Assembly (NCBI GenBank): GCA_036803205.1 | Contig: DAIRUS010000003.1 | Span: forward strand, 1 to 61,900 | Direction of reading: 5' to 3' | From: a bacterium | GTDB lineage: Bacteria > Patescibacteriota > Minisyncoccia > Minisyncoccales > GBS-2 | Length of the DNA stretch: 61,900 nt | Shown here: piece by piece, positions 3,849 to 60,407 of the stretch | Layout of the letters: each line of letters starts with the position of its first letter | Numbering within the stretch: the first letter of the stretch is position 1 | The notes under the pieces: model-generated | The model's input: the letters and a program-made list of their open reading frames with translations, nothing else | Databases searched by the model: none | What the model was told of the DNA's origin: nothing | Made by a program: the position numbers and the translations under genes

Positions 3849-4430
3849 ATGGGGATTAAAAAATATAAATATTATTTCTACAAACCAAAATCAGAAATAG
3901 TTAAAGATGTGTTATATTGGTTAGCCGTAACTGGGGCTGTTTATATTGCCGCCAGCTCTCCCTATTTTATTAGAAGTCTTTTAAAAAATATTAAAAAATT
4001 TAAAAAACACTCAAAAAGAAGGTTGGCCAATATCTTTTATAGATTAAAAAAAGAAGGGTTAATTGAAATAAAAAAAAGAGGTAAGCAATTTTACATAGGT
4101 TTAACCGAAGAAGGAAAGAAAAAGGCGGGAAGGTTTCAAATCGATGCCTTAAGAATAAAGAGGACCAAAAAATGGGATAGAAAATGGAGGCTGGTAATTT
4201 TTGATATTTCTGAGTTGAAAAAGTTTTTAAGAGAACTCTTTAGAGGAAAGTTAAAAGAATTGGGGTTTTATCAATTACAAAAAAGTGTCTGGGTTCATGC
4301 TTTTGATTGTGAGGCTGAAATTGAACTACTAAAAGAATTTTTTGGTTTATCAGAAAACGAATTGAAATTGGTGGTAGCTGAAAAAATAAGCAACGACGGC
4401 GTCCTAAAAGACTTTTTTAAAATAAAATAA
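3849..4430 (+). CDS. PaaX-like protein: hydrophobic N-terminal segment + winged-helix + Cas2-like (PaaX central) domain, paralog 1
   Basis: FYRLKKEGLIEIKKRGKQFYIGLTEEGKKK is wHTH-like. KKWDRKWRLVIFDI...LGFYQLQKSVWV matches the WDxxW-hydrophobic-strand and QxSVW pattern of the PaaX central / Cas2 ferredoxin fold. Roughly 55-60% identical by eye to ORF 57034-57606. Confidence 0.6.
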   Translation: MGIKKYKYYFYKPKSEIVKDVLYWLAVTGAVYIAASSPYFIRSLLKNIKKFKKHSKRRLANIFYRLKKEGLIEIKKRGKQFYIGLTEEGKKKAGRFQIDALRIKRTKKWDRKWRLVIFDISELKKFLRELFRGKLKELGFYQLQKSVWVHAFDCEAEIELLKEFFGLSENELKLVVAEKISNDGVLKDFFKIK

Positions 4431-4505: not shown

Positions 4506-5999
4506 TTACCTTAAAAAGCTTGGGCGAGTGAATTTTTCTTGAAGTCGCCAGATGATTAGACTTAAAATTAAATAAAAGACTATTAGCCAAAACCAGGAAA
4601 TCTCCAGCGATTTAAAGGCAAAAGGAAACCCAGAAAAAAAGTCAACGATTTTTATTAAATAAGTGAGTAAAAACCAAACGGGAAAGGAAAAAATCCAGCC
4701 CAGGGGTTGCCAAATCGCTCCCAAAAAGGCAAAGATAAAACCAAAAAGTATAATCCAATAAAGTCCAGGAACAATGAGGATGTTAGTAATCGGAGCAATA
4801 AAAGAAACATAGCCAAAATTATAAATCAAGATTGGCAAGGTGAAAACCTGAGCAGATAGAGTTATTGCCAAAATACTTCTTAATTGGAAGTGGTTTGGGA
4901 TCTTCCGGAGCCAAATTTGAAAAATTGGCAAAAGATAAATTATTCCCAGCATGGCCAAAAAAGAAAGCTGAAAACCAACGTCTAGCTTCAAAAGCAAGGG
5001 ATTTTGAGCTAACATTATAACAGCAGCAAAGACAATTGTGCGAGAGGAAACGTTCATTCTGCCTAAATATTGGGCTAAAAGAAAAAGGCCGCCCATAATT
5101 CCAGCCCTAACGGCTGAAGGTTGAAGTCCGGTTATAATTATAAATAGAACAATTAAAATAATTGAAAAATAAAAGGCTTGATGTCGCCAAAAACCTAACC
5201 CAATTAAGATGGTCATTAAAATACTTGTTACGATTGTGACATGAAGTCCGGAGACAGCGGTAATGTGTCTTACACCAGTCACATTTAGTTTCTGATTTAA
5301 ATCCTCGGAGATTTGTTTTTTATCCCCTAAAATCATTGCTCCTAAAATTGAACTCTGAGGTGGAGACAAATTTTGATAAATAACCTCTCTCAATTTATTT
5401 TTAAATTTCAAGATTTTTGCATACACAAAACTTCCTTTATTTTTTTCAATTATCTCAATTTTTGGCCAATCCATTACTGAATAGATTCCGTCTTTTTTTA
5501 AATAATCTTTATAGTTAAAACCTTCAATATCTTCTAAGGGGGTCTTTAGTTTTCCAAAAATTTTCAATTTATCGCCATAATGATATTCTGGATAGCGATT
5601 TGTAGTTATTAAAACCTTGCCAAAAATTAGCGAAGAACTGTCTCCCGCTAAAACTTGAGTTGTTTTAACTGTTAGTTTTTGGCTTTTTTCTCTCATCTCT
5701 GGCTCAGTTGAGACTATTCCGATTAGGGTGATTTTTTGATCTAAGTCATTAAATTTCCTTAATTCGTCATTCTTAATTCTCAATTCTTCAATATTGTGTC
5801 TCCAAATCCCTAAAACTAAAAACAAGAGAGAAAAGCCAACAATGACCAATTTTTTATATCTCCAGCAAGCCAAGATTAATAAAATTCCTAAAGTTAAAAA
5901 ACTCAATATTATTAGTTGAGAAATTTTAAAAAATGAACTCAAAAAAATCCCTCCAATAAAAGAGAGGCAAAAAAAGTAAAATATTTTCGAGGGAGTCAT
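4506..5999 (-). CDS. comEC: competence protein ComEC/Rec2 (DUF4131 + competence domain, no beta-lactamase domain)
   Basis: 497 aa. N-terminal TM helices, an OB-like segment (KLTVKTTQVLAGD...GDKLKIFGKLKTP), then a multi-pass channel domain with SGLHVT. Confidence 0.75.
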   Translation of the reverse strand: MTPSKIFYFFCLSFIGGIFLSSFFKISQLIILSFLTLGILLILACWRYKKLVIVGFSLLFLVLGIWRHNIEELRIKNDELRKFNDLDQKITLIGIVSTEPEMREKSQKLTVKTTQVLAGDSSSLIFGKVLITTNRYPEYHYGDKLKIFGKLKTPLEDIEGFNYKDYLKKDGIYSVMDWPKIEIIEKNKGSFVYAKILKFKNKLREVIYQNLSPPQSSILGAMILGDKKQISEDLNQKLNVTGVRHITAVSGLHVTIVTSILMTILIGLGFWRHQAFYFSIILIVLFIIITGLQPSAVRAGIMGGLFLLAQYLGRMNVSSRTIVFAAVIMLAQNPLLLKLDVGFQLSFLAMLGIIYLLPIFQIWLRKIPNHFQLRSILAITLSAQVFTLPILIYNFGYVSFIAPITNILIVPGLYWIILFGFIFAFLGAIWQPLGWIFSFPVWFLLTYLIKIVDFFSGFPFAFKSLEISWFWLIVFYLILSLIIWRLQEKFTRPSFLR

Positions 6000-16304: not shown

Positions 16305-16949
16305 ATGAATTATAATATTTCCTCTATGACAATTATCATTGGGTTAGGTAATCCCGGAAAAAAATTTCAAAAAACTCGCCATAATCTTGGCTTCCGGGTA
16401 ATTGATGTATTTGGGAAAAAAAATCAGTTTCCCAATTTTAGAATCTTAAAGAAATGTCTGGCCTTAATTTCCGAAAAGAAATTGAATAATGAAAAAATCC
16501 TCCTGGCAAAGCCCCAAACCTTTATGAATCTATCAGGAAAATCAGTGAAGCTTCTCATCCACCACTTTTTCCCCAAACCCCAAATACTCCAAATAAATGC
16601 CATGGCTGATATTTGGAGTATTGAAGAGAGAGTTTGGATAGTTCATGATGAAATCGATTTGCCTCTGGGAGAGATAAAGATCGTCAAAAATCGAGGAGCA
16701 GCTGGTCACAAAGGAGTTCAATCAATAATCGATGAATTGAAAACTAAAAACTTTGTAAGAATCCGAATTGGAATCAGACCAAAAAATCAAGAAACTGAAA
16801 AACAAAAAAACATTGAAAAGTTTGTTCTTCAAAAATTTGATAAAGAAGAGGAAAAAATTGTTAAAGAAGTAATAAAAAAAACTGCCCAAGCTCTTGAATT
16901 TACCTTAAAAAATGGTTTAGAAAAAGCAATGAGCGAATATAACAGATAA
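16305..16949 (+). CDS. pth: peptidyl-tRNA hydrolase carrying a 22-codon palindromic insertion (probable true start at 16326)
   Basis: IIGLGNPGKKFQKTRHNLGF, FMNLSGKSV, VHDEIDLPLG, GHKGVQSI. An extra segment, PKPQILQINAMADIWSIEERVW, lies between the FF and IVHDE blocks. Confidence 0.9.
   Translation: MNYNISSMTIIIGLGNPGKKFQKTRHNLGFRVIDVFGKKNQFPNFRILKKCLALISEKKLNNEKILLAKPQTFMNLSGKSVKLLIHHFFPKPQILQINAMADIWSIEERVWIVHDEIDLPLGEIKIVKNRGAAGHKGVQSIIDELKTKNFVRIRIGIRPKNQETEKQKNIEKFVLQKFDKEEEKIVKEVIKKTAQALEFTLKNGLEKAMSEYNR
16573..16637. repeat. third copy of the type-2 palindromic element, in frame inside pth
   Basis: The 23-mer ATACTCCAAATAAATGCCATGGC (16584-16606) is identical to 57628-57650, and TGGAGTATT (16614-16622) is also shared. 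Outer arms are CCAAAC/GTTTGG. Confidence 0.85.
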
Positions 16950-19535: not shown

Positions 19536-20402
19536 ATGGAGGATATAAAAGAAATTTCAATTAACGACGAGAAATATCCTAAGCTTTTAAAAAAAATTAA
19601 AGACGGACCGAAAGTTCTCTATTATCGGGGAGAAATAAAAAATGAAGAAAATTGTTTTGCCATTGTGGGAACCAGACGGTGTTCAGATTATGGAAAGCAG
19701 GTGGCCTTGGAAATTGCCGGAGATTTAGCCGAGGCAGGATTAACAATTGTTTCCGGCCTGGCGCCAGGAATTGATACCTTTGCCCATCGGGCAACGGTTG
19801 AAAAAGGAAGAAGGACAATCGCCGTTTTAGGCACCGGAGTTGATGAAAAATCAATTTATCCCAAATCTAACCTAAAATTGGCAAGAAAAATTTTAGAAAT
19901 CGGTGGTTGTCTTATTTCTGAATATCCAGCAGGAACTCGCGGGACCCAATTTACCTTTCCTCAAAGAAATCGAATAATCTCTGGACTTTCTTTGGGAGTT
20001 TTAGTGGTTGAGGCGAAAGAAAAATCAGGAGCTTTAATTACGGCCAATTATGCATTTCAACAAAAAAGAAAAGTTTTTGCTGTACCTGGCTCAATTTATT
20101 CTTCCAATTCTAAGGGCCCCCATCTTTTAATTAAAAGCGGTGCCAAATTAGTTGAAAATGCCAACGACATCCTCAAGGAACTAAATCTTCCCCTTAAGAA
20201 GGTTAGTTTCTTTTGTGAAGGAGAAACAGAAGAAGAAATCTTTGTGTTAAATGCTTTAAGAGAGGGGGGATTAGATATTGATAAAATCATTGAGAAAACA
20301 AAATTATCAGCGGCTAAAGTAGTCAGCACTCTTGCCATTTTAGAAATAAAAGGTAAGGTAAAAAACTTAGGAGGAAATATTTATGCCCTTAGTCATAGTT
20401 GA
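19536..20402 (+). CDS. dprA: DNA processing protein DprA/Smf
   Basis: Rossmann-like domain with SGLAPGIDTFAHRATV and a C-terminal winged-helix-like tail. Confidence 0.85.
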   Translation: MEDIKEISINDEKYPKLLKKIKDGPKVLYYRGEIKNEENCFAIVGTRRCSDYGKQVALEIAGDLAEAGLTIVSGLAPGIDTFAHRATVEKGRRTIAVLGTGVDEKSIYPKSNLKLARKILEIGGCLISEYPAGTRGTQFTFPQRNRIISGLSLGVLVVEAKEKSGALITANYAFQQKRKVFAVPGSIYSSNSKGPHLLIKSGAKLVENANDILKELNLPLKKVSFFCEGETEEEIFVLNALREGGLDIDKIIEKTKLSAAKVVSTLAILEIKGKVKNLGGNIYALSHS

Positions 20403-22500
20403 AAGTCCGACAAAAGGAAATACTATTAAAAAATTTTTAGGTCCTCAATACAAGGTTCTTGCTTCTTACGGGCATATTAGGGATTTACCGGAAGATGAGT
20501 TTGGAATAGATGTTGAAAAAAATTTTAAGCCAAAATACATTATTATTCCAAAAGCCAAAAAAATTGTTCAGTTTCTGAAAAAAGAGGCAGAAAAAGCCAA
20601 CTTAATTATAATTTCGACCGACCCCGATAGAGAAGGAGAAGCTATTGCTTACCACTTAATTCATCTTCTAAATCTAAACGGAGAAAAACCATATCAAAGA
20701 ATTGTTTTTCATGAAATTACCAAATCGGCAATCGAGGAAGCGTTTAAAAAGCCGAGAAAGATTGACCTAAATTTAGTTGATGCTCAGCAAGCCAGAAGAA
20801 TTTTAGATAGAATTGTTGGCTATAAATTAAGCCCATTTCTCTGGAAAAAAGTAGCCAGAGGTTTATCAGCCGGAAGAGTGCAATCAGTAGCGGTGAGGTT
20901 AGTGGTGGAAAGAGAAAGGGAAATTCAAAATTTTGTTCCCCAAGAATATTGGACCATAACAGCCCAACTCAAAAAATTAGAGAACAAAACTCAGCAAGTT
21001 TTACAGGGGTCGGACCTCTGTCAATCGGACCTCTGTCAATCGGACCTCTGTCAATCGGACCTCTGTCAATTTGACGCTCTTTTGGTCAAAAAAGATGAAA
21101 AAATGATTCCCAAATTGGGAATTAAGACAAAGGAAGAGGCAGAAAAAATTATTAAAGAATTAAAAGATGCTGAATATAAAGTAGCAAATATTGAGAAAAA
21201 AGAGGTCAAAAGAAATCCCCTACCGCCATTTGTTACTTCCACTTTGCAACAGGCGGCCTGGCAGAGGTTTAAATGGCCAGCAAAATTGACAATGCAAATT
21301 AGCCAGCAACTTTATGAGACAGGATATATTACCTATCATCGTAGCGATTCTTTAAATGTTTCAGAATTGGCTTTAGCAATGGCTAAAAGATTTATTGTTA
21401 AAAATTACGGTCAAAATTATTATCAATTTCGAAAATATAAAACAAGGGCAAAAGTAGCCCAAGAAGCCCATGAAGCTATTAGACCAACCTATCCGGAAAA
21501 TATTCCAGAAAAAATTTCCAGAAAATTAGAAAAAAGCCAATTAAAGCTTTATGAACTCATTTGGAAAAGATTTATCGCCTGTCAAATGGCTCAAGCAATT
21601 TTTGAGTCAACAATTGTTGATATTTCAGCCAAAAATTATATTTTTCGGGCTAACGGACAAGTTTTGAAATTTGATGGATTTTTAAAGGTTTATCCAATTA
21701 AATATGAAGAGGTTGAATTGCCTTCTTTAAAAATAAATGAAATTTTAGAATTAATAAACCTCGTTCCTTCCCAACATTTCACCCAACCCCCTCCCAGATA
21801 TACCGAAGCAACTCTAATTAAAGCCTTAGAAGAAAATGGCATCGGTCGACCATCAACCTATGCACCAATATTATCGACAATTCAGGAAAGAAACTACATT
21901 GAAAAAGATGAGAACAAAAAATTTCGACCAACTGAAATCGGATTAGTGGTTAATGATTTGTTGGTCAATCACTTTTCGGAAATTGTTGATATTGGTTTTA
22001 CTGCCAAGATGGAAGAGAATTTAGATAAAATTGCTTTGGGAGAAAAAAAATGGCTACCAGTAATAAAAGAGTTTTATCAATCTTTCGATGAGAATTTAAA
22101 AAAGAAATATCAAGAAATTTCAAAAAAGAGTTTAATTGAAAAAACAGAAAAAATTTGTCCCCAATGTCAAGCTCATCTTTTAATTCGTTTAGGTAAATTT
22201 GGAAAATTCTACGCCTGTTCTAAATTTCCAAAATGTAAATACACTGAATCTTTAGAGGAAAACGATTTGGGTCCCAAATGTCCAAAATGTGGACAGGGAA
22301 AGATAGTGAAAAAAAGAACTAAAAAAAGGAAAATATTTTATGCCTGTAATCGGTTCCCGAAATGTAATTTTGCCTTATGGGAAAAACCAACAGGAGAAAT
22401 TTGCCCGAAATGCCAATCCCTCTTAGTGGAAACCAAAAGAAAGCAGATAAAATGTTCAAATCAAGAATGTGATTACAAATGGATAAATTCCTCAACCTAA
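20383..22500 (+). CDS. topA: DNA topoisomerase I
   Basis: Toprim (VESPTK, DPDREGE). YITYHRSDS active-site Tyr region. Three C-terminal CxxC...CxxxxC zinc ribbons. Confidence 0.9.
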   Translation: MPLVIVESPTKGNTIKKFLGPQYKVLASYGHIRDLPEDEFGIDVEKNFKPKYIIIPKAKKIVQFLKKEAEKANLIIISTDPDREGEAIAYHLIHLLNLNGEKPYQRIVFHEITKSAIEEAFKKPRKIDLNLVDAQQARRILDRIVGYKLSPFLWKKVARGLSAGRVQSVAVRLVVEREREIQNFVPQEYWTITAQLKKLENKTQQVLQGSDLCQSDLCQSDLCQSDLCQFDALLVKKDEKMIPKLGIKTKEEAEKIIKELKDAEYKVANIEKKEVKRNPLPPFVTSTLQQAAWQRFKWPAKLTMQISQQLYETGYITYHRSDSLNVSELALAMAKRFIVKNYGQNYYQFRKYKTRAKVAQEAHEAIRPTYPENIPEKISRKLEKSQLKLYELIWKRFIACQMAQAIFESTIVDISAKNYIFRANGQVLKFDGFLKVYPIKYEEVELPSLKINEILELINLVPSQHFTQPPPRYTEATLIKALEENGIGRPSTYAPILSTIQERNYIEKDENKKFRPTEIGLVVNDLLVNHFSEIVDIGFTAKMEENLDKIALGEKKWLPVIKEFYQSFDENLKKKYQEISKKSLIEKTEKICPQCQAHLLIRLGKFGKFYACSKFPKCKYTESLEENDLGPKCPKCGQGKIVKKRTKKRKIFYACNRFPKCNFALWEKPTGEICPKCQSLLVETKRKQIKCSNQECDYKWINSST
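21010..21069. repeat. perfect 15-bp x4 tandem repeat (TCGGACCTCTGTCAA) in topA, encoding (SDLCQ)x4
   Basis: Direct reading; four identical units, in frame. Confidence 0.95.
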
Positions 22501-22606: not shown

Positions 22607-22694
22607 GCCGCGGTGCTGGAATTGGCAGACAGGATGGACTCAAAATCCATTGTCCCAAAAGGACGTGTGGGTTCAACTCCCACCTGCGGCACCA
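22607..22694 (+). tRNA. tRNA-Leu(CAA), type II with long variable arm, CCA encoded
   Basis: Acceptor GCCGCGG/CTGCGGC. Anticodon stem ATGGA/TCCAT with loop CTCAAAA. Variable arm GTCCCAAAAGGAC. T-arm GTGGGTTCAACTCCCAC. 3' ACCA. Confidence 0.9.
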
Positions 22695-22862
22695 GCGAGA
22701 AAAAGTCAATGATTGGTGGGTCGCCTCGCTTCGCTCGGCGACCAAATTATACGGGATTTTCCAGTCAAAATTTAATTTTTGGTTTTGTGCCAGCTTCGCT
22801 GGCCATAAAAGAAAATTTTAAAAGGTCGGATTTTTTTAAGTTCGTTAATCTTAATTAATTTA

Positions 22863-28952: not shown

Positions 28953-30218
28953 ATGACAACCAAATTTTTAATTAAAGGAGGCGTTCCTCTTTCCGGAGAA
29001 GTTGAAATTTCTGGTTCGAAAAATGAAGCCGGTCCTATTTTGGCGGCAACTCTATTAACTGAAAGCGAGTGCGAGATTGAAAATTTGCCTTTGGTAAGTG
29101 ATATTTTAAACCAAATTGAATTACTAAAAAAAATTGGGGCAAAAGTTGAATGGTCGGGGTCAAAAAAAATAAAAATTGGAGCAAAGAATATTGAGCCAGA
29201 AAAAATTCCTGTTAATCTTTTTGAAAAGATGAGAATTTCTGTTTTGTTAATTGGTCCTCTTTTGGCTCGTTTTGGAAAAATAAAAGTGCCTCATCCAGGC
29301 GGAGATAAAATTGGTTTAAGACCAATCTTAACCCACCTTGAAGCTTTTAAAGATTTTGGAATTAAAATTAAAACCAAAAATGGTTTTTATTATTTTGAGA
29401 TGCCAAAAAATTTAAGAGGAAAAAGGGTTGTTTTAAAAGAATTCAGCGTCACGGCAACTGAAAATCTGATGATGTTGGCTGCTCTTTGTCCCGGCCAAAC
29501 CAGAATTGATATGGCTGCTTCTGAGCCTCATGTTCAAAATTTAGGAAAATTTTTAAAATCAATGGGGGTAGAAATTGAAGGAATAGGAACCCATACCCTC
29601 ATCATCAAAGGAAAGAAAAAGTTGGCAGGAGTAAATTTTGTTACCTCTCCTGACCCCATCGAAACTGGTACTTTTTTGATTGTTTTTGCCATCACCGGGG
29701 GCGAAGGAGAAATAAAAAATATCAATGCTGAAGACCTGGTTTGCTTTTTAGAAAAAATGAAAGAAATTGGTGTTAATTTTAAAGTTAAAAACAATCAAAT
29801 TTTAGTTAAACCTTCTTCTAATTTTAGGGCAACAAAAATTCAAATTCTCCCCCATCCCGGTTTTCCTACTGATTTACAACCCCAAAGTTGCGTTTTATTA
29901 ACCCAAGCTCAAGGAAAAAGTTTAGTTCACGAACCTCTTTATGAGAATAGATTTCAACATTTGCACGAACTAAGAAAAATGGGGGCGGATATTGAAATTA
30001 CCGATCCTCATCGAGCATTAATTTTTGGAAAAACGAAATTAAGCGGAACAAAATTAAATGGTACTGACATTAGAACCGGAGCTTCCTTGGTTTTAGCCGG
30101 ATTGATTGCTAAAGGAGAAAGCGTTGTCGAGGGGGTTGAACAAATTGAAAGAGGTTATGAAAAAATCGAGGAAAAATTAAAAAAACTCGGGGCGAAAATT
30201 AAAAAAATAACAAATTAA
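28953..30218 (+). CDS. murA: UDP-N-acetylglucosamine 1-carboxyvinyltransferase
   Basis: FLIKGGVPLSGEVEISGSKNEA N-terminus and a two-domain EPSP/MurA fold pattern. Start moved to ATG 28953; the upstream 49 codons overlap yvcK antisense. Confidence 0.9.
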   Translation: MTTKFLIKGGVPLSGEVEISGSKNEAGPILAATLLTESECEIENLPLVSDILNQIELLKKIGAKVEWSGSKKIKIGAKNIEPEKIPVNLFEKMRISVLLIGPLLARFGKIKVPHPGGDKIGLRPILTHLEAFKDFGIKIKTKNGFYYFEMPKNLRGKRVVLKEFSVTATENLMMLAALCPGQTRIDMAASEPHVQNLGKFLKSMGVEIEGIGTHTLIIKGKKKLAGVNFVTSPDPIETGTFLIVFAITGGEGEIKNINAEDLVCFLEKMKEIGVNFKVKNNQILVKPSSNFRATKIQILPHPGFPTDLQPQSCVLLTQAQGKSLVHEPLYENRFQHLHELRKMGADIEITDPHRALIFGKTKLSGTKLNGTDIRTGASLVLAGLIAKGESVVEGVEQIERGYEKIEEKLKKLGAKIKKITN

Positions 30219-30262
30219 GCAAAATATATAAAAATTCTTCTTATCTTTGAAAAATCTAAAAC

Positions 30263-30742
30263 CTATCCAACTGTAATATCAACTCTCTTTTTTATATCGA
30301 AAGCAGCGGGTAATTCTATGGCTGCCTCTAAATACCATTCAATCCTGGAAATGGAAGACTTAGCCTTAAGCATCTCAAATGTTTTAAACATTGTACCCAA
30401 AACACCTTCGGTTGCCTCTGTTGGTTTAGATGGCATGGTCAAAACATTAGCAGGAATTTTTATCTCAAAAGGATATTCTCCTTTTAAATATTCTTTTTCA
30501 CCATCGAGAACTAACTCAAAACGATGAATAAAATCTTTCCTTGTCTGTCTGGTTGGCGGGCGGTTTAGCCTTTTTTCCAAATAAGTAGTAATTCTTACAC
30601 CGTTTAAGGTCACTCTTAATTTTTTGGCCAAGGTAGGTTTTTTAAGTTCAAAAGAAACCCTTCCTTTAATTGTTTCTCCTGGCAAAAAATTGAATTTCTC
30701 TAAACTAATATCGATTTTTCCTGCTCCAAAACCAAAAATCAT
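30263..30742 (-). CDS. Spo0M-like (arrestin-fold) protein
   Basis: GFGAGKIDISLEKFNFLPGETIKGRVSF resembles the Spo0M family N-terminus. Confidence 0.45.
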   Translation of the reverse strand: MIFGFGAGKIDISLEKFNFLPGETIKGRVSFELKKPTLAKKLRVTLNGVRITTYLEKRLNRPPTRQTRKDFIHRFELVLDGEKEYLKGEYPFEIKIPANVLTMPSKPTEATEGVLGTMFKTFEMLKAKSSISRIEWYLEAAIELPAAFDIKKRVDITVG

Positions 30743-30933
30743 ATTATTTTATTTTACCAAAAACCCCCGTACCAATCAATAGGGATAGTGTGAGACAGAC
30801 CGCCTAAACGAATTCTAACTAATAGCTTGTCCGAGACAAGAAGAAATAGAATCACCGGTGAAAATAGTATTAAAGCCCTTAGATAGTGCTAAAGTAGATA
30901 AAGTGTTACAATTTATTCATCTAGTACAAGGAC

Positions 30934-30961
30934 TTGACAAAGTTTTTTAATTTGCTATAAT
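30934..30961 (+). promoter_or_regulatory. sigma70-type promoter with extended -10 driving the orphan RNA
   Basis: TTGACA (30934-30939), 16-nt spacer, TGcTATAAT (30953-30961). Confidence 0.6.
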
Positions 30962-30967
30962 AAGGGT

Positions 30968-31279
30968 AGCACTATAAAATAAAAAATATTGTAGGGATTG
31001 CCTGCGAGGCCTTGAATGAGGTTTGGCGGGCAATCCCTACCAGTTGGATGGAAGGTGTTGGGGCGCCACGACGCCTTTCTGGTTAACCTGGTTTTTCCCT
31101 AGCCTCAAGATGGCGAACCGGTTCCCCGGCCGGAGGGAGAGGGTTAACTAAAAATCCAGCTGTTGCACTTCCCACCCATTTTTTGGGGGGGAAGCGGGTT
31201 TTGGTAGTTGCGAAGAGGGCAGTAGGGACCCTCTTCGCTATTGCTCTTGAATGGGTGCGAAAGCACCCTTTTCTTTTTT
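30968..31279 (+). ncRNA. orphan structured RNA of about 310 nt, class unknown
   Basis: GC-rich island in AT-rich DNA with no ORF of 60 codons or more. Stems: 30991-31002/31029-31040 (12 bp perfect), 31041-31049/31154-31162, 31081-31088/31142-31149, 31168-31177/31185-31194, 31210-31219/31229-31238 (10 bp perfect). Ends in a GNRA-capped terminator. Confidence 0.6.
31253..31279 (+). terminator. intrinsic terminator of the orphan RNA
   Basis: GGGTGC-gaaa-GCACCC followed by TTTTCTTTTTT. Confidence 0.75.
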
Positions 31280-31539
31280 ATAATCAATTTTTTTAATAAA
31301 AAATTAAAAAATTTTTTAAATTAAAATAGGTTATTTACGGCACAAAAATTAACTTACGAAAAGAAAACTAAAGAGGAAACACCTAAAGATCTTGATATTT
31401 CAATTATTGATTTAGTTGCTCAGCTAGTTTGACCTGCTTTTTTAATTCTAGAATTTTTAGAAAAACTGAGTAAAAAGGTTCTCTTAAATCGCAAAAAAAT
31501 AGCAAAACTTTACTTACCTAAAATCCTCTCAGCGGAAGA

Positions 31540-32145
31540 CTATCCTTTGCTGATAAACTGGGAACGAGCAAAATTAAAAGTTTTGAGATTTAATTCCAGA
31601 TATTTTTCTGGAATCATTTTTTTAATAGCTTTTTCAAGAGAGTTTGGTTTTATCGGAATTAACCCTTTAAAGGTAGCGAAGCTTATTAAATAAATACCGG
31701 CTAAAACCTCATTTCCTAATTCTTTTTTGCAAATTTCATTGGCTGGAACAAGATTAATTTTTTGAGTGAATTTTTTTATCTCATTTAAAATTTCATTTTC
31801 TGAAAGTGAAGGTTGACCAGGAATGGGTAGTAAATATTTATTTATTAAAAATTGACTATTTTTGTTGGCATAATAGAGTCCTCTTAAAGCTTCGTGCATT
31901 TCCAAGGCTAAAATTAAATCAGCGCCTGCCTGAAAAACCAAAGGAGAAAAAATTTCTTTGCCAAACCTTATTTGTGCCTCAACTGAACCCCCTCTTTGAG
32001 ACAAACCATGGAGTTCAGAAGTTTTAACCTGATAACCTTCGCTAAAAGCGGCTTCAGATAAAATCTCCAGCAGGGTAATTTGGCCCTGGCCGCCAATTCC
32101 AATAATTATAATGTTAAAATCTTTTTTTAGATTCTTAGATTTCAT
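31540..32145 (-). CDS. iorB: indolepyruvate:ferredoxin oxidoreductase beta subunit
   Basis: IIIGIGGQGQITL (POR gamma-type domain). Immediately downstream of iorA. Confidence 0.75.
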   Translation of the reverse strand: MKSKNLKKDFNIIIIGIGGQGQITLLEILSEAAFSEGYQVKTSELHGLSQRGGSVEAQIRFGKEIFSPLVFQAGADLILALEMHEALRGLYYANKNSQFLINKYLLPIPGQPSLSENEILNEIKKFTQKINLVPANEICKKELGNEVLAGIYLISFATFKGLIPIKPNSLEKAIKKMIPEKYLELNLKTFNFARSQFISKG

Positions 32146-34007: not shown

Positions 34008-34487
34008 ATGGTTCAGGACGAAAAGGAAAAAGATAAAACCCTTTCCTCGAAATTAGAAATCTATCATACACAGGATTTAATCGCCTTAATTGCCAATGGT
34101 ACCATTGCCCCTTCTTCTCCTCTCCCCTTACATCTTGAAAATCCTGCCACCCGTGCAGTCATCAAATCAATCAGTTCCCCCTTCAAGGCAAAGGATGAAC
34201 CTTACCAATCACCGATTGCCAATGGGTTACGGCTAAAAGCCACTTTCCTGGATAAAAAAGGCAAGGAATTTGCGCCTCATTTGGCCCAATTGCCCGGGCC
34301 AAAAAAAATCTCAAGGTGGCTAGAAGAAAAATTCTTTGTCGTTCCTTGTCGGATCTGCGGACAAAACACCATCTTTATTCAACTTGTCGTTATTACGCCC
34401 AGCAGGGTAAAAGCAGGATTTTACAGTATTGAGTGTGGAATAATAAGGCTTGATAACTTAGAGGAGAAAGATTTTCTCCTCAAATAA
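34008..34487 (+). CDS. 159-aa orphan protein
   Basis: SD AAAGGAGGTGAT and upstream TTGACA (33944-33949). Own terminator. CRICG...C...C near the C-terminus. No recognised family. Confidence 0.55.
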   Translation: MVQDEKEKDKTLSSKLEIYHTQDLIALIANGTIAPSSPLPLHLENPATRAVIKSISSPFKAKDEPYQSPIANGLRLKATFLDKKGKEFAPHLAQLPGPKKISRWLEEKFFVVPCRICGQNTIFIQLVVITPSRVKAGFYSIECGIIRLDNLEEKDFLLK

Positions 34488-36414: not shown

Positions 36415-36441
36415 ATATTGAATTATAACAAAAAAAGGGGG

Positions 36442-36470
36442 TTGACAAAAAGTGAGTAATAGCCTAAAAT
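36442..36470 (+). promoter_or_regulatory. sigma70-type promoter for ORF 36541-36837
   Basis: TTGACA (36442-36447), 17-nt spacer, TAAAAT (36465-36470). Confidence 0.5.
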
Positions 36471-36540
36471 GAATATGCCCCGGAAAGGAGGGGGAAGATT
36501 TTATTAGAAGGGGCAAAAAAAAAGGAGGAGGGAAACATTT

Positions 36541-36837
36541 ATGGCTGTAATAAGGGATGGCAAACTGGTGTTAAGCGGGGAAGAATTAGATATAATCATC
36601 GGAAAAAAGGTGATTAAGTTGTTGCTAACCTCGCGGGGATTGAATGAATACGGGCTTTTGCTCCTTTACACGCCCCAAAAAACCTCCAACCCTATGGACA
36701 AGTCCTTAACGGACATAAGTCTTCCAGTTCCAGAGGAGGTTTTATCAAAATTTCCCGAAGGAAGTTCCTTCGGGAAAGTTTCCAAAGTCTTCCATCCCAC
36801 AACAAAAAAACCCATCGGCATTGTTCTTTGTCCATAA
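36541..36837 (+). CDS. 98-aa orphan protein
   Basis: SD AAGGAGGAGGG, own promoter and terminator. No recognised family. Confidence 0.5.
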   Translation: MAVIRDGKLVLSGEELDIIIGKKVIKLLLTSRGLNEYGLLLLYTPQKTSNPMDKSLTDISLPVPEEVLSKFPEGSSFGKVSKVFHPTTKKPIGIVLCP

Positions 36838-36845
36838 GTTCTTCT

Positions 36846-36875
36846 AAGGCAGGTTTCTAACCTGCCTTTTTTTTA
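36846..36875 (+). terminator. intrinsic terminator
   Basis: AAGGCAGGTT-tct-AACCTGCCTT followed by a T-run. Confidence 0.75.
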
Positions 36876-37173
36876 AAAAACAACAGATTTTCTGATTTTC
36901 GCTCCTATTTATTTTGAAATTTTTTGCACCAATAGGTTAATAATTTTGTTAATGTCATTTTATTAAAAATAAAAAGGTTCCAAAAAAGAACCAAAAAACT
37001 AACTTTTTAAAAGCCGAAGTTCAAAGTTTTTGAAGTTTCTCTCAGTTTTTATTATTATCCCAAAAAGTCACCAATGTAAATAAGACTACAACCTTTAGGT
37101 CCAATTTTTTGTTTTAAATCTGGAATATTATCTATCCGCTTAGAGAAAAATCTATCCAGAAAAAAGGTTACGC

Positions 37174-39697: not shown

Positions 39698-39725
39698 TTG
39701 ACAATAAAGATTTAAATGATATAAT
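39698..39725 (+). promoter_or_regulatory. sigma70-type promoter with extended -10 for ORF 39763-40203
   Basis: TTGACA (39698-39703), 16-nt spacer, TGaTATAAT (39717-39725). Confidence 0.55.
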
Positions 39726-39762: not shown

Positions 39763-40203
39763 ATGAATAAATGTATATTGTGTGGAAAGGGTAAAAGTAA
39801 AGAAGGTCATGTAGTGTGTAGTGAGTGTTATCAAAAATATCGGGAAGAAAGTGTCAGGGCCTTAATTGGTGGAAAAGCGATAACTTTAGTCAGTTGGGTA
39901 AAAGAAGAAGCCGAAAAAAGGCTTCAAGTTCTTCGAGAAGAAGTGGAAAAAAGTCAAGAAGAACTCCAAAAACTTAATACGAAGGTTCGAGAGGAAGCAT
40001 ACAGTTTCGTTACTCTTTCCCTTAAGGGTCAAAGAGTGCCTAAAGAGGTTTTCCAAGAGGCATTCAAAGAAAAAAAGAGGCAGTTGTGGGAAGAGGCTGG
40101 CGGAAATAGGCTATACTCTAAACACAAACAATTAGAGGAGAATGTCGTTAACCTCGAAAAATTCCTCACAATGGCCCAAAATTTGTCCAATAAAAACCCC
40201 TAA
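39763..40203 (+). CDS. 146-aa orphan: N-terminal zinc ribbon + coiled coil
   Basis: CILCG...CSECY, followed by E/K-rich heptad-like sequence. SD GGAAGGAGGG. Confidence 0.55.
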   Translation: MNKCILCGKGKSKEGHVVCSECYQKYREESVRALIGGKAITLVSWVKEEAEKRLQVLREEVEKSQEELQKLNTKVREEAYSFVTLSLKGQRVPKEVFQEAFKEKKRQLWEEAGGNRLYSKHKQLEENVVNLEKFLTMAQNLSNKNP

Positions 40204-53323: not shown

Positions 53324-56300
53324 TTAAATTTTCTTTATCGCTAAGTGTAAAGTTTGACCTTCAATTTTTATTTCTTTTTCCAGATCAAAAACAATTTTTT
53401 CTTTTTCCGAATAAAAATCTTTTATCTTTGCCTGAAGAGCAATGAGTTTCTGATTTTTAAGTAAAATTTCAGCCAAACTTCCCTCTGTGGAATATCTTAC
53501 CATAATTTTATCTTTTGGTCTAAATCCGGCCTCTTTTCTCATTGATTGAATGTAGCGAATAACTTCTCGCAAAATCCCTTCTTCTTTCAGTTCGGAAGTA
53601 ATTTTTGTATCCAATTCTATTTCTTTTTTAATTCTTCCATCAAAAACTATTTCTTTTACATTCACTTCCTCTTTTAATAATTTTAATAATTTATCATCAA
53701 ACCTAAGCTTTAAATCTTTTATTTTTAGCCTTGAAAGGGGCTGCCTCACTTTTATTTTTGCATTTGACCTTTCAGCTAAAACTAAAGTTGCCATTTCCCT
53801 GATTTTTTCCATTTTCTTTTCCAAATTCTTATCAATCAACTCTTTGTTTGCTTTTGACCAGTCAACTAAATGGATGGAGGTTGGTAGTCGAAAGTTAAAA
53901 CTCAAAAGTTTTTGATAAATGAATTCGCTTAAAAATGGGATAAATGGAGCGGATAATTTGCTGATGGTCAAAAGGACAAATCCTAAAGTTTGAGAAACTA
54001 TTTCAAGTTCTTTTTTTGTTTCTGGTTTTTGAAACCTTTCCCTTGACCTCCTAATATACCAAAGAGAAAGCTCATCAGCAACAAATTTTTCAATTAATCT
54101 TGCCCCTTTAGTTATATCGTAGTTGTCTAAACTTTCAGTAACATCTTGAATTAAAGTATTTAGTTTCGAAATAATCCATTTGTCTAAAACATTTTCCCCT
54201 CTCAGAGGATAAGACTTTCTTATTATTCTCCTAAAATTGGAAGTGGTCTTAGCATAGGTTTGGAAAAATAAAAAGCAATTCCAAAAAATGATTATGAATT
54301 TCCTTAAACTTTCTTCAATATCTTTTTCCGAAAATAGTTTTGCCTCGCCTGGTTGATTAATAGTGTAAAAATACCATCTGACAGCATCGACTCCGTATTT
54401 TTCAATAATATACCAGGGGTCAACTACGTTACCTTTTGACTTAGACATTTTTTCTCCCTTTTCATCTAAAACATGACCCAAAGAAATAACATTTTTGTAA
54501 CTCGGACCAAAGTCCAAAAGAGTAGAAATTGCCAATAGAGTATAAAACCAACCCCGGGTTTGGTCTATTCCTTCGGAGATATAGTCAGCGGGAAATAATA
54601 TTTTTTTAATTAACTTTCGATAGTTTTGGATTTTAAGCTCGAGGTTTTTGGTTTTAAAACAAGAAAGTGGGAAATGGGCTTGGGCAAAAGGCATTGCTCC
54701 AGAGTCAAACCAACAATCAACCACTTCTGAGACTCTTGCCATTAAATTGCCGCACTTTGGACAATAAAATCTTACCTCATCAATATACGGCCGATGAAAA
54801 TCTAATTCTCCTTTCTCATTCATTGGTAAAAATTTAAATTCTAATCTTCTTAACTCGCCATTTTTAATAATGCCCTTTTTCTTTTTTTCCGCAACTAATT
54901 CTTTTTTTGTTTGTCCCTTCAAGGCTCCTGCCAACAGCCAGAAAGGATCACCATGACCAACAATTAAGATTTTTTTATCCTGATATTTTTTATCAATTTC
55001 TTTTAAAAATTCAGTCATTCTCATTTGGCAATGAAGCCAACTTTCTCCTTTTGGTAACTTTTTTTCAAAGCGCTCTTCAGAAATTGGAAAATCCCGAAAA
55101 TATTCTTCTTTTGGTCGACCATGGTAAATGCCCAAATTAATATCTCTTAATCTTCTGTCGAAATTGACTTTTAATTTCAACTCTTTGGCTATAATTTCAG
55201 CAGTTTGTTTTGTCCGGAAAAAATCGGAAGAATAAATCAAATCAATCCCTAATTTTTTCAATTTCGGAATCACTCTTTTTATTTGCTCAACTCCCTCTTC
55301 TGTTAAACCAATGGGTTCTTTTTCTGGAAAAGGATAGGTCAGGTCTTTTTTTCTTGTTTGATAAATTGTTTGGCCATGTCTTAAGAAAAAATATTGATTG
55401 GTCGAAAATTTTTGAGAAAGTAAATCTCTTTTTCCGCCAATGACTTCTAAGTATTGGCAACTTTGGCATTGCCAAATTGGCAAAGGTGTCCCCCAATACC
55501 TTTCTCTCGATAGGGCCCAATCTTTTATTTCTTTTAACCATTCACCAAATCTCCCTTCTTTTAAATGTCCTGGAATCCAATTGATTTTTTGATTATTTTT
55601 GATTAAGTTTTCCTTCAGGGCGGTCATTCTAATAAACCAACTTTTTTTAGCATAATAAAGAAGGTGGCTGCGGCATCTCCAGCAAAAAGGATAATCGTGT
55701 TCGTACAATTCTTCCTTAAAAAGCAAGTTTCTCTCTTTGAGGTCTTCAATAATTAGTGGATCAGCTTTTTTGACGAAAAGTCCGGCCCATTTTTTGATAT
55801 CAAGCCTAAACCTTCCTTCTTCATCAACTGTTAACAAAATTGGAAACTCCGGCCTATTCTCCAATCGGTAATTTTCATTTACCAATTTTATTAATGCCAA
55901 GTCTTCCTCTCCAAAAGCCGGGGCAATATGAACCAAGCCTGTCCCCTCTTCCAATGAAACAAAATCAGCCGGAAGAGTTTTGTAAATTGTTATTCCCACC
56001 CGGGATTCAACCGGATAAAGAGGTTGATAGTAAAGATTAACCAAATCTTTTCCTTGAAACTCTTTTACAATTTCTCCTTGAATACCTGTAGCTTCAATCC
56101 GCTCTTTAGCCAGAATTAAAAACTCCTGGCCAATTTTTAATTTGGCATAAACGAAATTTTCATTTAGAGCAATGGCTACATTTCCTGGTAAAGTCCAAGG
56201 GGTGGTTGTCCAAACTAAAAGAGAGGTGTTTTTGAATTCCGGATTTAAAATGGGAAATTTAACATAGATTGAAGGCTCCTTTATTTTTTCGTAACCCAAA

Positions 56301-56866
56301 GCTAGCTCGTGACTAGAAAGAGAGGTTTGACACCGCGGACAATAAGGAACAACTTTAAAATCTTGATATAACAGTCCTTTTTGCCAAATGGTTTTTAAAA
56401 TCCACCAGACGCTTTCAATGTATTCAGGGGTATAAGTAATATAGGGGTCTTTCATGTCTAGCCAAAAACCAATCCTTTCGGTCAATTTCTCCCAATCTTT
56501 TTTGTATTGCCAGACAGATTTTTTACATTCTTCGTTGAATTTGGCAATGCCATATTTTTCTATCTCTCTTTTTGATTTCAATCCTAATTTTTTTTCAATT
56601 TCCAATTCAACCGGCAAGCCGTGAGTATCCCAACCCGCCCTTCTTAAAACTCTAAATCCTTGCATCGTTTTGTAGCGACAAATAATATCTTTAAAAACCC
56701 GACTCAAAACATGATGGATTCCCGGCTTGGCATTAGCCGTCGGTGGCCCCTCATAAAAAACAAAATCAATTTTCTTTTTTCTTCTTTTGATGCTATTTTC
56801 AAAAATTCTATTTTTCTTCCAAAACCTAAGTACTTTTTCCTCTAATTTTGGAAAGTTTATCTCCAT
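53324..56866 (-). CDS. ileS: isoleucyl-tRNA synthetase with an internal histidine-phosphatase-like domain
   Basis: PPTANAKPGIHHV (HIGH-like), CP1 editing region, WGTPLPIW, KMSKSKGN, anticodon-binding domain. 1180 aa, including an insert of about 196 aa (FLRHGQT...VGHGD). Confidence 0.9.
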   Translation of the reverse strand: MEINFPKLEEKVLRFWKKNRIFENSIKRRKKKIDFVFYEGPPTANAKPGIHHVLSRVFKDIICRYKTMQGFRVLRRAGWDTHGLPVELEIEKKLGLKSKREIEKYGIAKFNEECKKSVWQYKKDWEKLTERIGFWLDMKDPYITYTPEYIESVWWILKTIWQKGLLYQDFKVVPYCPRCQTSLSSHELALGYEKIKEPSIYVKFPILNPEFKNTSLLVWTTTPWTLPGNVAIALNENFVYAKLKIGQEFLILAKERIEATGIQGEIVKEFQGKDLVNLYYQPLYPVESRVGITIYKTLPADFVSLEEGTGLVHIAPAFGEEDLALIKLVNENYRLENRPEFPILLTVDEEGRFRLDIKKWAGLFVKKADPLIIEDLKERNLLFKEELYEHDYPFCWRCRSHLLYYAKKSWFIRMTALKENLIKNNQKINWIPGHLKEGRFGEWLKEIKDWALSRERYWGTPLPIWQCQSCQYLEVIGGKRDLLSQKFSTNQYFFLRHGQTIYQTRKKDLTYPFPEKEPIGLTEEGVEQIKRVIPKLKKLGIDLIYSSDFFRTKQTAEIIAKELKLKVNFDRRLRDINLGIYHGRPKEEYFRDFPISEERFEKKLPKGESWLHCQMRMTEFLKEIDKKYQDKKILIVGHGDPFWLLAGALKGQTKKELVAEKKKKGIIKNGELRRLEFKFLPMNEKGELDFHRPYIDEVRFYCPKCGNLMARVSEVVDCWFDSGAMPFAQAHFPLSCFKTKNLELKIQNYRKLIKKILFPADYISEGIDQTRGWFYTLLAISTLLDFGPSYKNVISLGHVLDEKGEKMSKSKGNVVDPWYIIEKYGVDAVRWYFYTINQPGEAKLFSEKDIEESLRKFIIIFWNCFLFFQTYAKTTSNFRRIIRKSYPLRGENVLDKWIISKLNTLIQDVTESLDNYDITKGARLIEKFVADELSLWYIRRSRERFQKPETKKELEIVSQTLGFVLLTISKLSAPFIPFLSEFIYQKLLSFNFRLPTSIHLVDWSKANKELIDKNLEKKMEKIREMATLVLAERSNAKIKVRQPLSRLKIKDLKLRFDDKLLKLLKEEVNVKEIVFDGRIKKEIELDTKITSELKEEGILREVIRYIQSMRKEAGFRPKDKIMVRYSTEGSLAEILLKNQKLIALQAKIKDFYSEKEKIVFDLEKEIKIEGQTLHLAIKKI

Positions 56867-57009: not shown

Positions 57010-57033
57010 TAAATATGGAGAAAGGTGGATTTT

Positions 57034-57606
57034 ATGAGTAAATATAAATATTATTTTAAAAAACCTAGGTCTGAAATTGTGAAAGATATTTTGAGTTGGT
57101 TAATGATTGGTGGGGCGGTTTATATTGCCGCTTCTTCCCCTTATTTTATTCACAATTTATTAAAAGCTTTTAAAAGAGGAAGACTATATCCTGAAAAGAA
57201 AGTTTATAATACATTTTATAAACTTCGAAAACAAGGGTGCATTAAAATTGAAAAAAAAGGAAAACAAATCTATATCTCTTTAACCGAAGAAGGAAAAAGA
57301 AAGGTTGGTTGGCTTCAAATAGATAGTTTGAAAATAAAAAAACCAAAAAAATGGGATAGAAAGTGGAGGATGGTTATTTTTGATATTTCTCAATTGAAAA
57401 AAATTTATCGAGAGGCTTTAAGGGGAAAATTGAAGGAGCTTGGCTTTTATCCTTTTCAAAAAAGTGTTTGGGTCTATCCTTATCCTTGTCAAGATGAAAT
57501 CGCTCTCCTTAGAGATTTTTTTGGTTTAACCTATAAAGAACTTTGTCTTATTACTGCTGAAAATATAGAGAAGGCGGATTTTTTACATAAAATTTTTAAA
57601 CTTTAA
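57034..57606 (+). CDS. PaaX-like protein: hydrophobic N-terminal segment + winged-helix + Cas2-like domain, paralog 2
   Basis: Same architecture as 3849-4430 (KKWDRKWRMVIFDI...LGFYPFQKSVWV). ATG at 57034 preceded by GGAGAAAGGTGG. The track start at GTG 57025 is also possible. Confidence 0.6.
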   Translation: MSKYKYYFKKPRSEIVKDILSWLMIGGAVYIAASSPYFIHNLLKAFKRGRLYPEKKVYNTFYKLRKQGCIKIEKKGKQIYISLTEEGKRKVGWLQIDSLKIKKPKKWDRKWRMVIFDISQLKKIYREALRGKLKELGFYPFQKSVWVYPYPCQDEIALLRDFFGLTYKELCLITAENIEKADFLHKIFKL

Positions 57607-60043: not shown

Positions 60044-60402
60044 GGGGATGATTGGAATCGATGAAGAGTTGACTAAAATAGGCAAACCGAGTATTCTCAA
60101 ATCTCGTTAAGCTTTGAGAAAAAGAATAAGTGCCAACTTATTCAGAGAACCAGCATTAGCCTACGCTTAATGGCTGATGCCATCGAGGTTGGTGACTCTC
60201 GCTAACCGACCACGGTGTTATAACCAGCGAGATAAATAGTTCTTTTGAAAATCCAAAAAGAACTATTAAGAGTTCTTAGGATTTAAGTATAGAAATTTTT
60301 GTCCAATTTTTAATTCTATACCTATTGACTAAATTGGACTAAGCTTGTAGAACTATTTTAGAAAAACTCTTCAGACGTGGGTTCAATCCCCGCCATCTCC
60401 AC
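60044..60402 (+). ncRNA. ssrA: tmRNA
   Basis: 5' GGGGATG pairs with 3' CATCTCC, including a G3-U pair. T-arm GTGGGTTCAATCCCCGC. Tag reading frame 60132-60170 encodes ANLFREPALAYA then a stop. Confidence 0.85.
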
Positions 60403-60407
60403 TAAAT

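Follow-up and report, generated by a model that had tools for sequence, protein, structure and literature searches.

Large structured RNAs of bacteria, such as OLE, ROOL, GOLLD, raiA and HEARO, are represented by many homologues, which exhibit covariation and conserved nucleotides. Scans of the GC content and the intergenic regions of AT-rich genomes are the method by which large structured RNAs have been obtained (PMC6429828, PMC8723152, PMC11109978). The RNA reported here is like them in forming a GC spike within a long intergenic region of an AT-rich genome, in its size of a few hundred nucleotides and in its multi-helix junction, but it has no detectable homologue and matches none of their Rfam models; in addition, its long perfect stems suggest less tertiary complexity. 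A second group of described systems is that of the lineage-specific stand-alone sRNA genes, among them RNAIII and the RsaE/RoxS RNAs of Firmicutes with their C-rich loops. Orphan sRNA genes are common in bacteria. With this group the RNA shares a transcription unit of its own, several hairpins, a CCCC apical loop, a terminator, the lack of an ORF and a narrow taxonomic distribution, although it shows no sequence or covariance-model similarity to RNAIII or RsaE/RoxS and, in comparison with typical base-pairing sRNAs, has a much higher GC enrichment and a larger share of its bases paired. The third group consists of the RNA partners of mobile or defence proteins (the omega-RNA of IscB/TnpB, the bridge RNA of IS110, the msr-msd of retrons and the type III antitoxin RNAs), in which, as here, a structured RNA lies in a small variable island beside one protein gene. 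In our case, however, the neighbour encodes an arrestin-like beta-sandwich protein and not a nuclease, a recombinase, a reverse transcriptase (RT) or a ToxN-type RNase, and the RNA has no tandem repeats, does not overlap the arrestin-like gene and is transcribed divergently from it. It must be noted that the genomes of the CPR/Patescibacteria are tiny and gene-dense and that, to our knowledge, almost nothing is known on their non-coding RNAs.

In this study, we analysed a 61.9-kb stretch of DNA (61,900 nucleotides, hereafter the window) from a Patescibacteria/CPR bacterium, whose nearest relatives by IorA are Nealsonbacteria-type metagenome-assembled genomes (55-65% identity). According to Pfam, the genes of the window include those for CofD, MurA, IorAB, GlmS, several aminoacyl-tRNA synthetases, TopA, DprA, Mfd, SmpB, IF3 and L20. 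Two of the genes carry further features. The isoleucyl-tRNA-synthetase-like gene at 53324-56866 (1,180 aa) has a His_Phos_1 histidine-phosphatase domain inserted at residues 493-656, and the topoisomerase I gene (20383-22500) contains, at 21010-21084, slightly more than three tandem copies of the 15-nt unit TCGGACCTCTGTCAA, which form an in-frame 5-residue repeat.

The RNA lies in a non-coding gap of 797 bp (30743-31539), in which the longest ORF has 47 codons. It is flanked by an Arrestin_N/C (Spo0M-like) gene and by a POR-family gene adjoining an IorA-like gene (Pfam). A sigma-70-type promoter was found on the plus strand at 30934-30961, with the −35 box TTGACA at 30934-30939, a 16-nt spacer and the extended −10 sequence TGcTATAAT (TATAAT at 30956-30961). 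In a consensus scan it matched the consensus at 12 of 12 positions, with the TG present upstream of TATAAT. Perfect TTGACA-N16-18-TATAAT sites occurred only twice on both strands of the 61.9 kb, where 0.02 were expected from 100 shuffles. The other one (39698-39725, TTGACA-N17-TATAAT) drives an orphan 146-aa ORF at 39763-40203, for which no Pfam, NCBIfam or PADLOC family was found; the calculated, not aligned, far end of a contig from another assembly of the same organism (L089) falls at 39763, the exact start of this ORF. From the promoter at 30934-30961, transcription of the RNA gene would start near 30968, and the RNA is probably abundant, judging solely from the match of that promoter to the consensus. 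The unit ends at an intrinsic terminator, also on the plus strand (31253-31279), which consists of the hairpin GGGUGC-GAAA-GCACCC (31253-31268) followed by UUUUCUUUUUU in the RNA (TTTTCTTTTTT in the DNA). The next plus-strand ORF of at least 100 codons starts at 34008, that is 2.7 kb downstream of the RNA. Therefore, the bracketing by a consensus promoter and a terminator, the gap of some 800 bp devoid of ORFs of 60 codons or more, and the absence of a plus-strand gene over about 2.7 kb, on which a preliminary description made from the sequence had relied, were all borne out.

The GC content of the RNA region peaked at 0.55-0.62, against a mean of 0.336 for the window, and this is the strongest GC island in it. 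Other GC-rich hairpins were observed elsewhere. Between leuS and glmS, a non-coding region of about 650-760 nt upstream of glmS (36415-37173, minus strand) contains several such hairpins, among them GGAAACTTTCCCGAAGG...CCTTCGGGAAA and GGCAGGTTAGAAACCTGCC, with no match to the glmS ribozyme or any other Rfam family at E<=1, and hairpins with C(UUCG)G-type loops and without Rfam annotation stand just downstream of tRNA genes both in the window (22692-22810) and in a Nealsonbacteria metagenome-assembled genome (L002, 1290-1450, three in a row).

The minimum free energy (MFE) of the 310-nt stretch 30970-31279 was −153.7 kcal/mol, which corresponds to z = −8.5 with respect to 100 dinucleotide shuffles. 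In a scan of 56 windows of this length, the RNA region gave the most extreme value (−10.2), beyond that of the tmRNA (−6.9), while the 54 others had a z of −0.43 ± 1.3 with a minimum of −4.5. About three quarters of the bases of the RNA are predicted to be paired. Both the MFE and the centroid structures consist of five separate modules and contain all the helices named in the preliminary description, namely the perfect stems of 12 and 10 bp, the 9-bp long-range helix and the C-rich/G-rich hairpin, and the dense complementarity of its GC-rich island agrees with the fold z of −8.5 to −10. The first module, H1 (30991-31040), is a hairpin of 22 bp. Its outer stem has 15 bp (12 perfect pairs and a G.U), its inner stem has 7 bp, three of them G.U pairs, and the loop is GAAU. 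H1 has −38.7 kcal/mol on its own and was also detected as an inverted repeat (I3). The second one is a multi-helix domain (31041-31162; −57.4 kcal/mol alone), in which the closing helix P2 (31041-31049/31154-31162, 9 bp with one G.U) surrounds P2a (31050-31079) and the branched P2b (31080-31150), whose apical hairpins are 31102-31114 and 31118-31133, the latter with a CCCC loop at 31124-31127. They are followed by H3 (31168-31194), with a C-rich arm, a G-rich arm and a U-rich loop and with a T6G7 homopolymer run inside, and by H4 (31203-31245), of about 16 bp with the inner 10 bp perfect and the loop CAGUAGGGA, whose heptamer GUAGGGA is identical to the 7 nt with which H1 begins. The terminator completes the series. 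GC enrichment and pairing above those of the tmRNA of the window point to selection for a stable fold, as would be expected for a protein-binding or scaffold RNA more than for a simple antisense seed. On the other side, it must be considered that long perfect stems are commoner in young or selfish hairpins than in old RNAs with a tertiary fold, which counts against a genuine ncRNA gene.

With respect to the strand, the minus strand of the RNA region also folds well (z = −6.05), because any set of hairpins must do so. However, the plus-strand fold was 34 kcal/mol more stable, with 18 G.U pairs versus 6 on the minus strand, and the plus strand is favoured because its G.U pairs turn into A.C mismatches on the opposite one. 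Given this asymmetry, together with the promoter and the terminator, the RNA is assigned to the plus strand. The alternative is that the region is a feature of the minus strand, a long structured 3' UTR plus terminator of the iorAB operon, and that the plus-strand signals are incidental. A terminator scan found none on the minus strand between the iorB stop codon and the RNA, and direct reading of the sequence shows that on this strand H1 is followed by the U-run AAUAUUUUUUAUUUUAU, the counterpart of the AU-rich 5' leader of the plus strand (30968-30990, predicted to be unpaired in the centroid structure), so that H1 may possibly act as terminator of iorAB read-through too. As a full account of the region we nevertheless regard the iorAB 3' UTR as very unlikely, since the plus strand is the better one by the above energy and by three times the G.U pairs, the promoter and the terminator are on the plus strand, and the relatives end iorB directly against murA without such a UTR.

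The whole window was compared with the 4,227 covariance models of Rfam 15 at gathering thresholds and the segment 30750-31450 was searched permissively, at E<=10. The only matches in the window at gathering thresholds were the tmRNA (60044-60404) and one tRNA (22607-22691). In 30750-31450 no family matched the RNA at E<=10 except through the H4 hairpin or the terminator, with scores that fell far short of the thresholds set for the families; the best of these sub-threshold matches, STnc400 (23.6 bits versus a threshold of 80), covered H4 and the terminator only. None of the models for RNase P, SRP, 6S, riboswitches, ribozymes, group II introns or large ornate RNAs gave a match at E<=10. The covariance-model scan which had been suggested to verify that the RNA belongs to no recognised class thus yielded nothing real. 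A literature search found papers on the method of scanning GC-rich intergenic regions and nothing on the RNA at 30968-31279.

The individual housekeeping RNAs were also compared by their hallmarks. Bacterial RNase P RNA has a P4 pseudoknot with the tracts GGAAAGUCC and ACAGAA and a core closed by P1. It was rejected on the lack of a model match at E<=10, the absence of both P4 tracts and a fold that is a row of local hairpins with no P1-closed core. SRP RNA is recognised by a helix 8 with a GNAR tetraloop, by conserved symmetric and asymmetric loops and by a long helix 5. Neither its small nor its large form matched at E<=10, and both the long-range 5'/3' helix and the helix-8 signature were absent. 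For 6S RNA, which is a single extended rod with a large central bubble, there was no model match, and the five separate modules do not correspond to such a rod. That the RNA is a highly divergent version of any of these three is, in our opinion, practically negligible, even if its size and GC enrichment are similar and housekeeping genes surround it; besides the missing model matches and signatures and a row of local hairpins that is neither a rod nor a P1-closed core, the RNA is within an insertion that relatives do not have. A riboswitch or other cis-regulatory leader was also rejected, given that the next plus-strand ORF of at least 100 codons is that at 34008 and that iorB converges from the other strand.

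As GC-rich RNA islands of AT-rich genomes are often mis-called as ORFs, the small ORFs and the open frame of the region were also searched as proteins. None of its five small ORFs (at least 30 codons) was on record in an exact look-up among 15 billion proteins, and when the 69-residue open frame was compared by phmmer with 1.84 billion representative proteins, there were two matches only, both of them repeat-protein noise. These results bear on the possibility that the transcript is the mRNA of a small protein or of a type I toxin. A 28-codon ORF (31016-31102) has a GAGG 7 nt upstream of its AUG, with both of them buried in H1, and type I toxins typically have structured mRNAs in which the Shine-Dalgarno sequence is concealed; a 42-codon ORF (31023-31151) is also present. 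However, these ORFs are short and without a clear transmembrane segment, ORFs of such size are expected by chance in GC-rich sequence, those of at least 30 codons are missing from the protein collection and the translated search gave repetitive junk only. Therefore, we consider a coding function highly improbable.

The search for homologues covered 99 related loci. In it, nhmmer with the RNA, run on successive sets of loci, matched only the own contig of the same organism, and a single-sequence covariance model (R1) built from H1 and the P2 domain had no match but itself when run on the window and on 13 CPR loci. Synteny based on IorA in GTDB genomes returned 80 loci, 7 of them from CPR, with no nhmmer match to the RNA, and the GC islands in these loci were tRNAs or unrelated hairpins. 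Exact-pattern scans of DNA collections, which used stop-free translations of the RNA as pseudo-proteins and six wobble-tolerant 24-mers per scan on both strands, did not find it in JGI metagenomes (12 of such 24-mers) or in viral contigs, and blastn gave no match in phage and plasmid records. Conservation, which the preliminary description had proposed to verify through homologues and covariation, gives the RNA no support, with zero homologues wherever they were searched and five relatives without the RNA at the matching site. The same description had named the absence of homologues or covariation, together with a lack of transcription, as what would speak against a functional RNA, and the first half of this is what we observed. 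In summary, the RNA shows what is proper to a generic stand-alone ncRNA gene (a promoter and a terminator of its own on the same strand, the absence of an ORF and a stable structure that composition does not explain), and the homologues with compensatory changes proper to a conserved structured RNA class were not found.

Although the synteny of iorB and murA gave no RNA homologue, it revealed an insertion. Many CPR relatives of IorB exist, and five loci are those of the closest ones (70-78% identity) with returned DNA and with murA downstream. In these loci (L094, L096, L097, L098 and L099; 69-78% nucleotide identity to the window) the alignment with the window is lost at 31567/8 and picked up again at 30199-30208, the two aligned stretches being separated by 3 to 25 nt, and in L094, L096 and L097 iorB and murA overlap. 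Given that iorB abuts murA in the five relatives, the window carries a lineage-specific insertion of 1,358 bp (30209-31566) between the converging 3' ends of both genes. In this insertion, the arrestin-like gene is followed by a divergent control region (about 190 bp), and the RNA gene by an AT-rich spacer (260 bp). A search for border repeats found neither terminal repeats nor a target duplication, and there was no second copy of the RNA element in the 61.9-kb window. In a sixth relative (L093), the same iorB junction is occupied by a PaaX_M-type gene, homologous to two cassettes elsewhere in the window; therefore, the 3' junction of iorB is a repeated insertion site. On these sequence grounds the RNA is a young or highly mobile element and not a housekeeping RNA, because it is inside an insertion missing from the relatives and the homologues of the arrestin-like gene are in unrelated contexts.

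The PaaX_M cassettes deserve a description of their own. The window contains two paralogous genes of 193 aa (3849-4430 and 57025-57606; about 73% DNA identity in parts of the genes), with a wHTH and a PaaX_M Cas2-like domain, and the homologue at the iorB junction of L093 is located at 4834-5403. The copy at 57025-57606 is flanked by perfect 52-nt inverted repeats (56958-57009/57626-57677) which contain the palindrome ATACTCCAAATAAATGCCATGGCATTTATTTGGAGTAT, and a third copy of this palindrome stands alone at 16578-16621. By this arrangement, the wHTH/PaaX_M genes look like a mobile regulator cassette.

The preceding results have to be weighed against the possibility that the region is a functionless or selfish cluster of GC-rich hairpins, a relic or a palindromic element of AT-rich genomes, which was brought by the insertion and for which transcription is irrelevant. 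In agreement with such a cluster, the region is lineage-specific, with zero homologues and missing at the same site in five relatives, its stems are long and perfect, other intergenic islands of GC-rich hairpins exist in the clade (22715-22805 in the window and 1290-1450 in L002), and the PaaX_M cassette of L093 marks the junction as a repeated insertion site. As regards repeated mobile hairpin elements (REP, MITE or GC clusters), a comparison limited to the 61.9-kb window showed a single copy without border repeats. The absence of a second copy, of terminal repeats and of a target duplication in these 61.9 kb speaks against a selfish cluster, as do the perfect promoter and the terminator, which bracket the RNA exactly on one strand, and the G.U asymmetry, which is that of helices tuned for a plus-strand RNA and not of DNA palindromes. 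We consider this explanation rather unlikely, and it must be taken into account ahead of the other alternatives discussed here. Our preference is for a genuine stand-alone ncRNA gene of about 310 nt, species-specific and outside any known family, to which we would give slightly better than an even chance from its sequence. Since it is a singleton, with no homologue found, it cannot be shown to constitute a new RNA class. The preliminary reading, a stand-alone structured RNA of the plus strand belonging to no recognised class, stands with respect to the promoter and terminator statistics, the fold z and the G.U asymmetry, and also as regards the missing ORF, downstream gene and Rfam match, but not with respect to conservation.

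Other assemblies of the same organism, which are 99.9-100% identical, all end in or next to the RNA. The left-side contigs end at 30679 (ENA ERZ1744544), 30725 (JGI 3300010288) and 31087 (Logan SRR5214706), while on the right side two assemblies (Logan SRR5214706 and ENA ERZ27245459) have contigs whose end is at 31222. As a consequence, among the contigs compared (L081 and L088-L092) only that of the window itself spans the 134 nt at 31088-31221. The central 134 nt could then be a chimeric join and the RNA an assembly artefact, as every other assembly stops at one of these four positions. Nevertheless, up to the breaks the RNA sequence of the independent contigs agrees with that of the window at 100%, and the perfect pairing of P2 and H4 spans both break points, which makes such a join unlikely; we find it barely plausible. 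SNPs with respect to other assemblies are rare elsewhere and do not cluster at the RNA. The breaks would be compatible either with strain-level variation inside the island or with coverage lost over the very stable hairpins. Two further origins of the breaks at 31087 and 31222 were rejected: an invertible segment, as the flanking inverted repeat is absent, and the template and variable repeats of a DGR, as there was no second copy and no RT gene in the scanned parts of the window.

The arrestin/Spo0M-like gene (30263-30742, minus strand) encodes a protein of 159 aa with an Arrestin_N domain (1.9e-8, Pfam) and is divergent from the RNA gene and co-inserted with it. Its homologues have at most 70% identity, one of them is named spo0M by JGI, and they stand in unrelated gene contexts in other genomes. 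Neither a defence system (PADLOC) nor an NCBIfam family was found for the protein, and no homologue of it was found in viral contigs. The preliminary description had stated that no adjacent gene suggests a partner for the RNA. This is maintained as far as RT, IscB/TnpB, Cas and IS110 genes are concerned, none of which was found by Pfam among the neighbours of the RNA and most ORFs of at least 100 codons from 16.3 kb on. A guide or partner RNA of IscB/TnpB, IS110, Cas or a retron RT was rejected on the same data, in which the neighbours and the scanned ORFs from 16.3 kb on were housekeeping genes only. The statement does not extend to the arrestin-like gene, which is the only candidate partner because it was co-inserted with the RNA in the block of 1.36 kb.

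In this regard, two sites ahead of the start codon of the arrestin-like gene, GGGGG and UCCCUAU, show complementarity to the CCCC loop (31124-31127) and to the GUAGGGA loop of H4; the sites overlap a candidate promoter of this gene. Unconstrained duplex prediction against all start regions was discarded, as the duplexes were too long to mean anything. When the screen was restricted to loops, the 5' region of the arrestin-like gene was the best and the second-best of 50 start regions for loops L2b-ii and L4, with an estimated chance of p ~0.07 that a pre-chosen gene ranks so. Pairing of the loops with this 5' region is a weak lead only, and a specific link of the RNA to the arrestin-like gene by this means seems unlikely at best.

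A broader proposal is that the RNA and the arrestin/Spo0M-like protein form a two-part module, either an RNP or a regulator with its target, which moves between variable sites of CPR genomes. There are three hints of it. Homologues of the arrestin-like gene adjoin a different promoter-driven small RNA (L082-L084 and L085) or an RRM gene (L086/L087), the breaks of every other assembly fall within the island, perhaps as a result of strain-level variation, and the two RNA loops are complementary to the 5' region of the arrestin-like gene. Even so, we regard the module as improbable; if it were true, it would be a previously undescribed kind of RNA-protein pairing. As for the neighbours of these homologues, an RNA-like element of about 95 nt, CCCCGACUAGG...CUAGACGGnGnUGGGGCA, is conserved downstream of them in L082 (approximately 4270-4390), in L085 (approximately 925-1050) and also in L083. 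A TGCTAnAAT extended −10 promoter precedes this element, in L085 a terminator follows it, and Rfam gave no match. In L086/L087 the neighbouring RRM gene is of the RNA-binding type.

Returning to the stand-alone RNA gene, the following course may be proposed. The RNA would have arrived, or arisen, within the 1.36-kb insertion along with the divergent arrestin/Spo0M-like gene. RNA polymerase would start near 30968 from the extended −10 promoter and stop at the terminator at 31253-31279, and the transcript would fold into five stable modules (the 22-bp hairpin, the branched domain with its 9-bp closing helix, two hairpins and the terminator). We infer that the gene is transcribed, that its product is stable and that this RNA acts in trans. 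Our best guess is a regulatory or protein-binding role, specific to this lineage and linked in function to the arrestin-like gene of the same insertion; for instance, the apical loops CCCC and GUAGGGA of the RNA might pair with GGGGG and UCCCUAU ahead of the start codon of that gene.

The value of this RNA at present is that of a flagged candidate and not of a discovery. Its co-insertion with the arrestin-like gene provides a concrete, testable hypothesis, and a strongly promoted, very stable RNA of 310 nt which is kept in a tiny genome is a reasonable candidate for a lineage-specific regulator or an RNP component.
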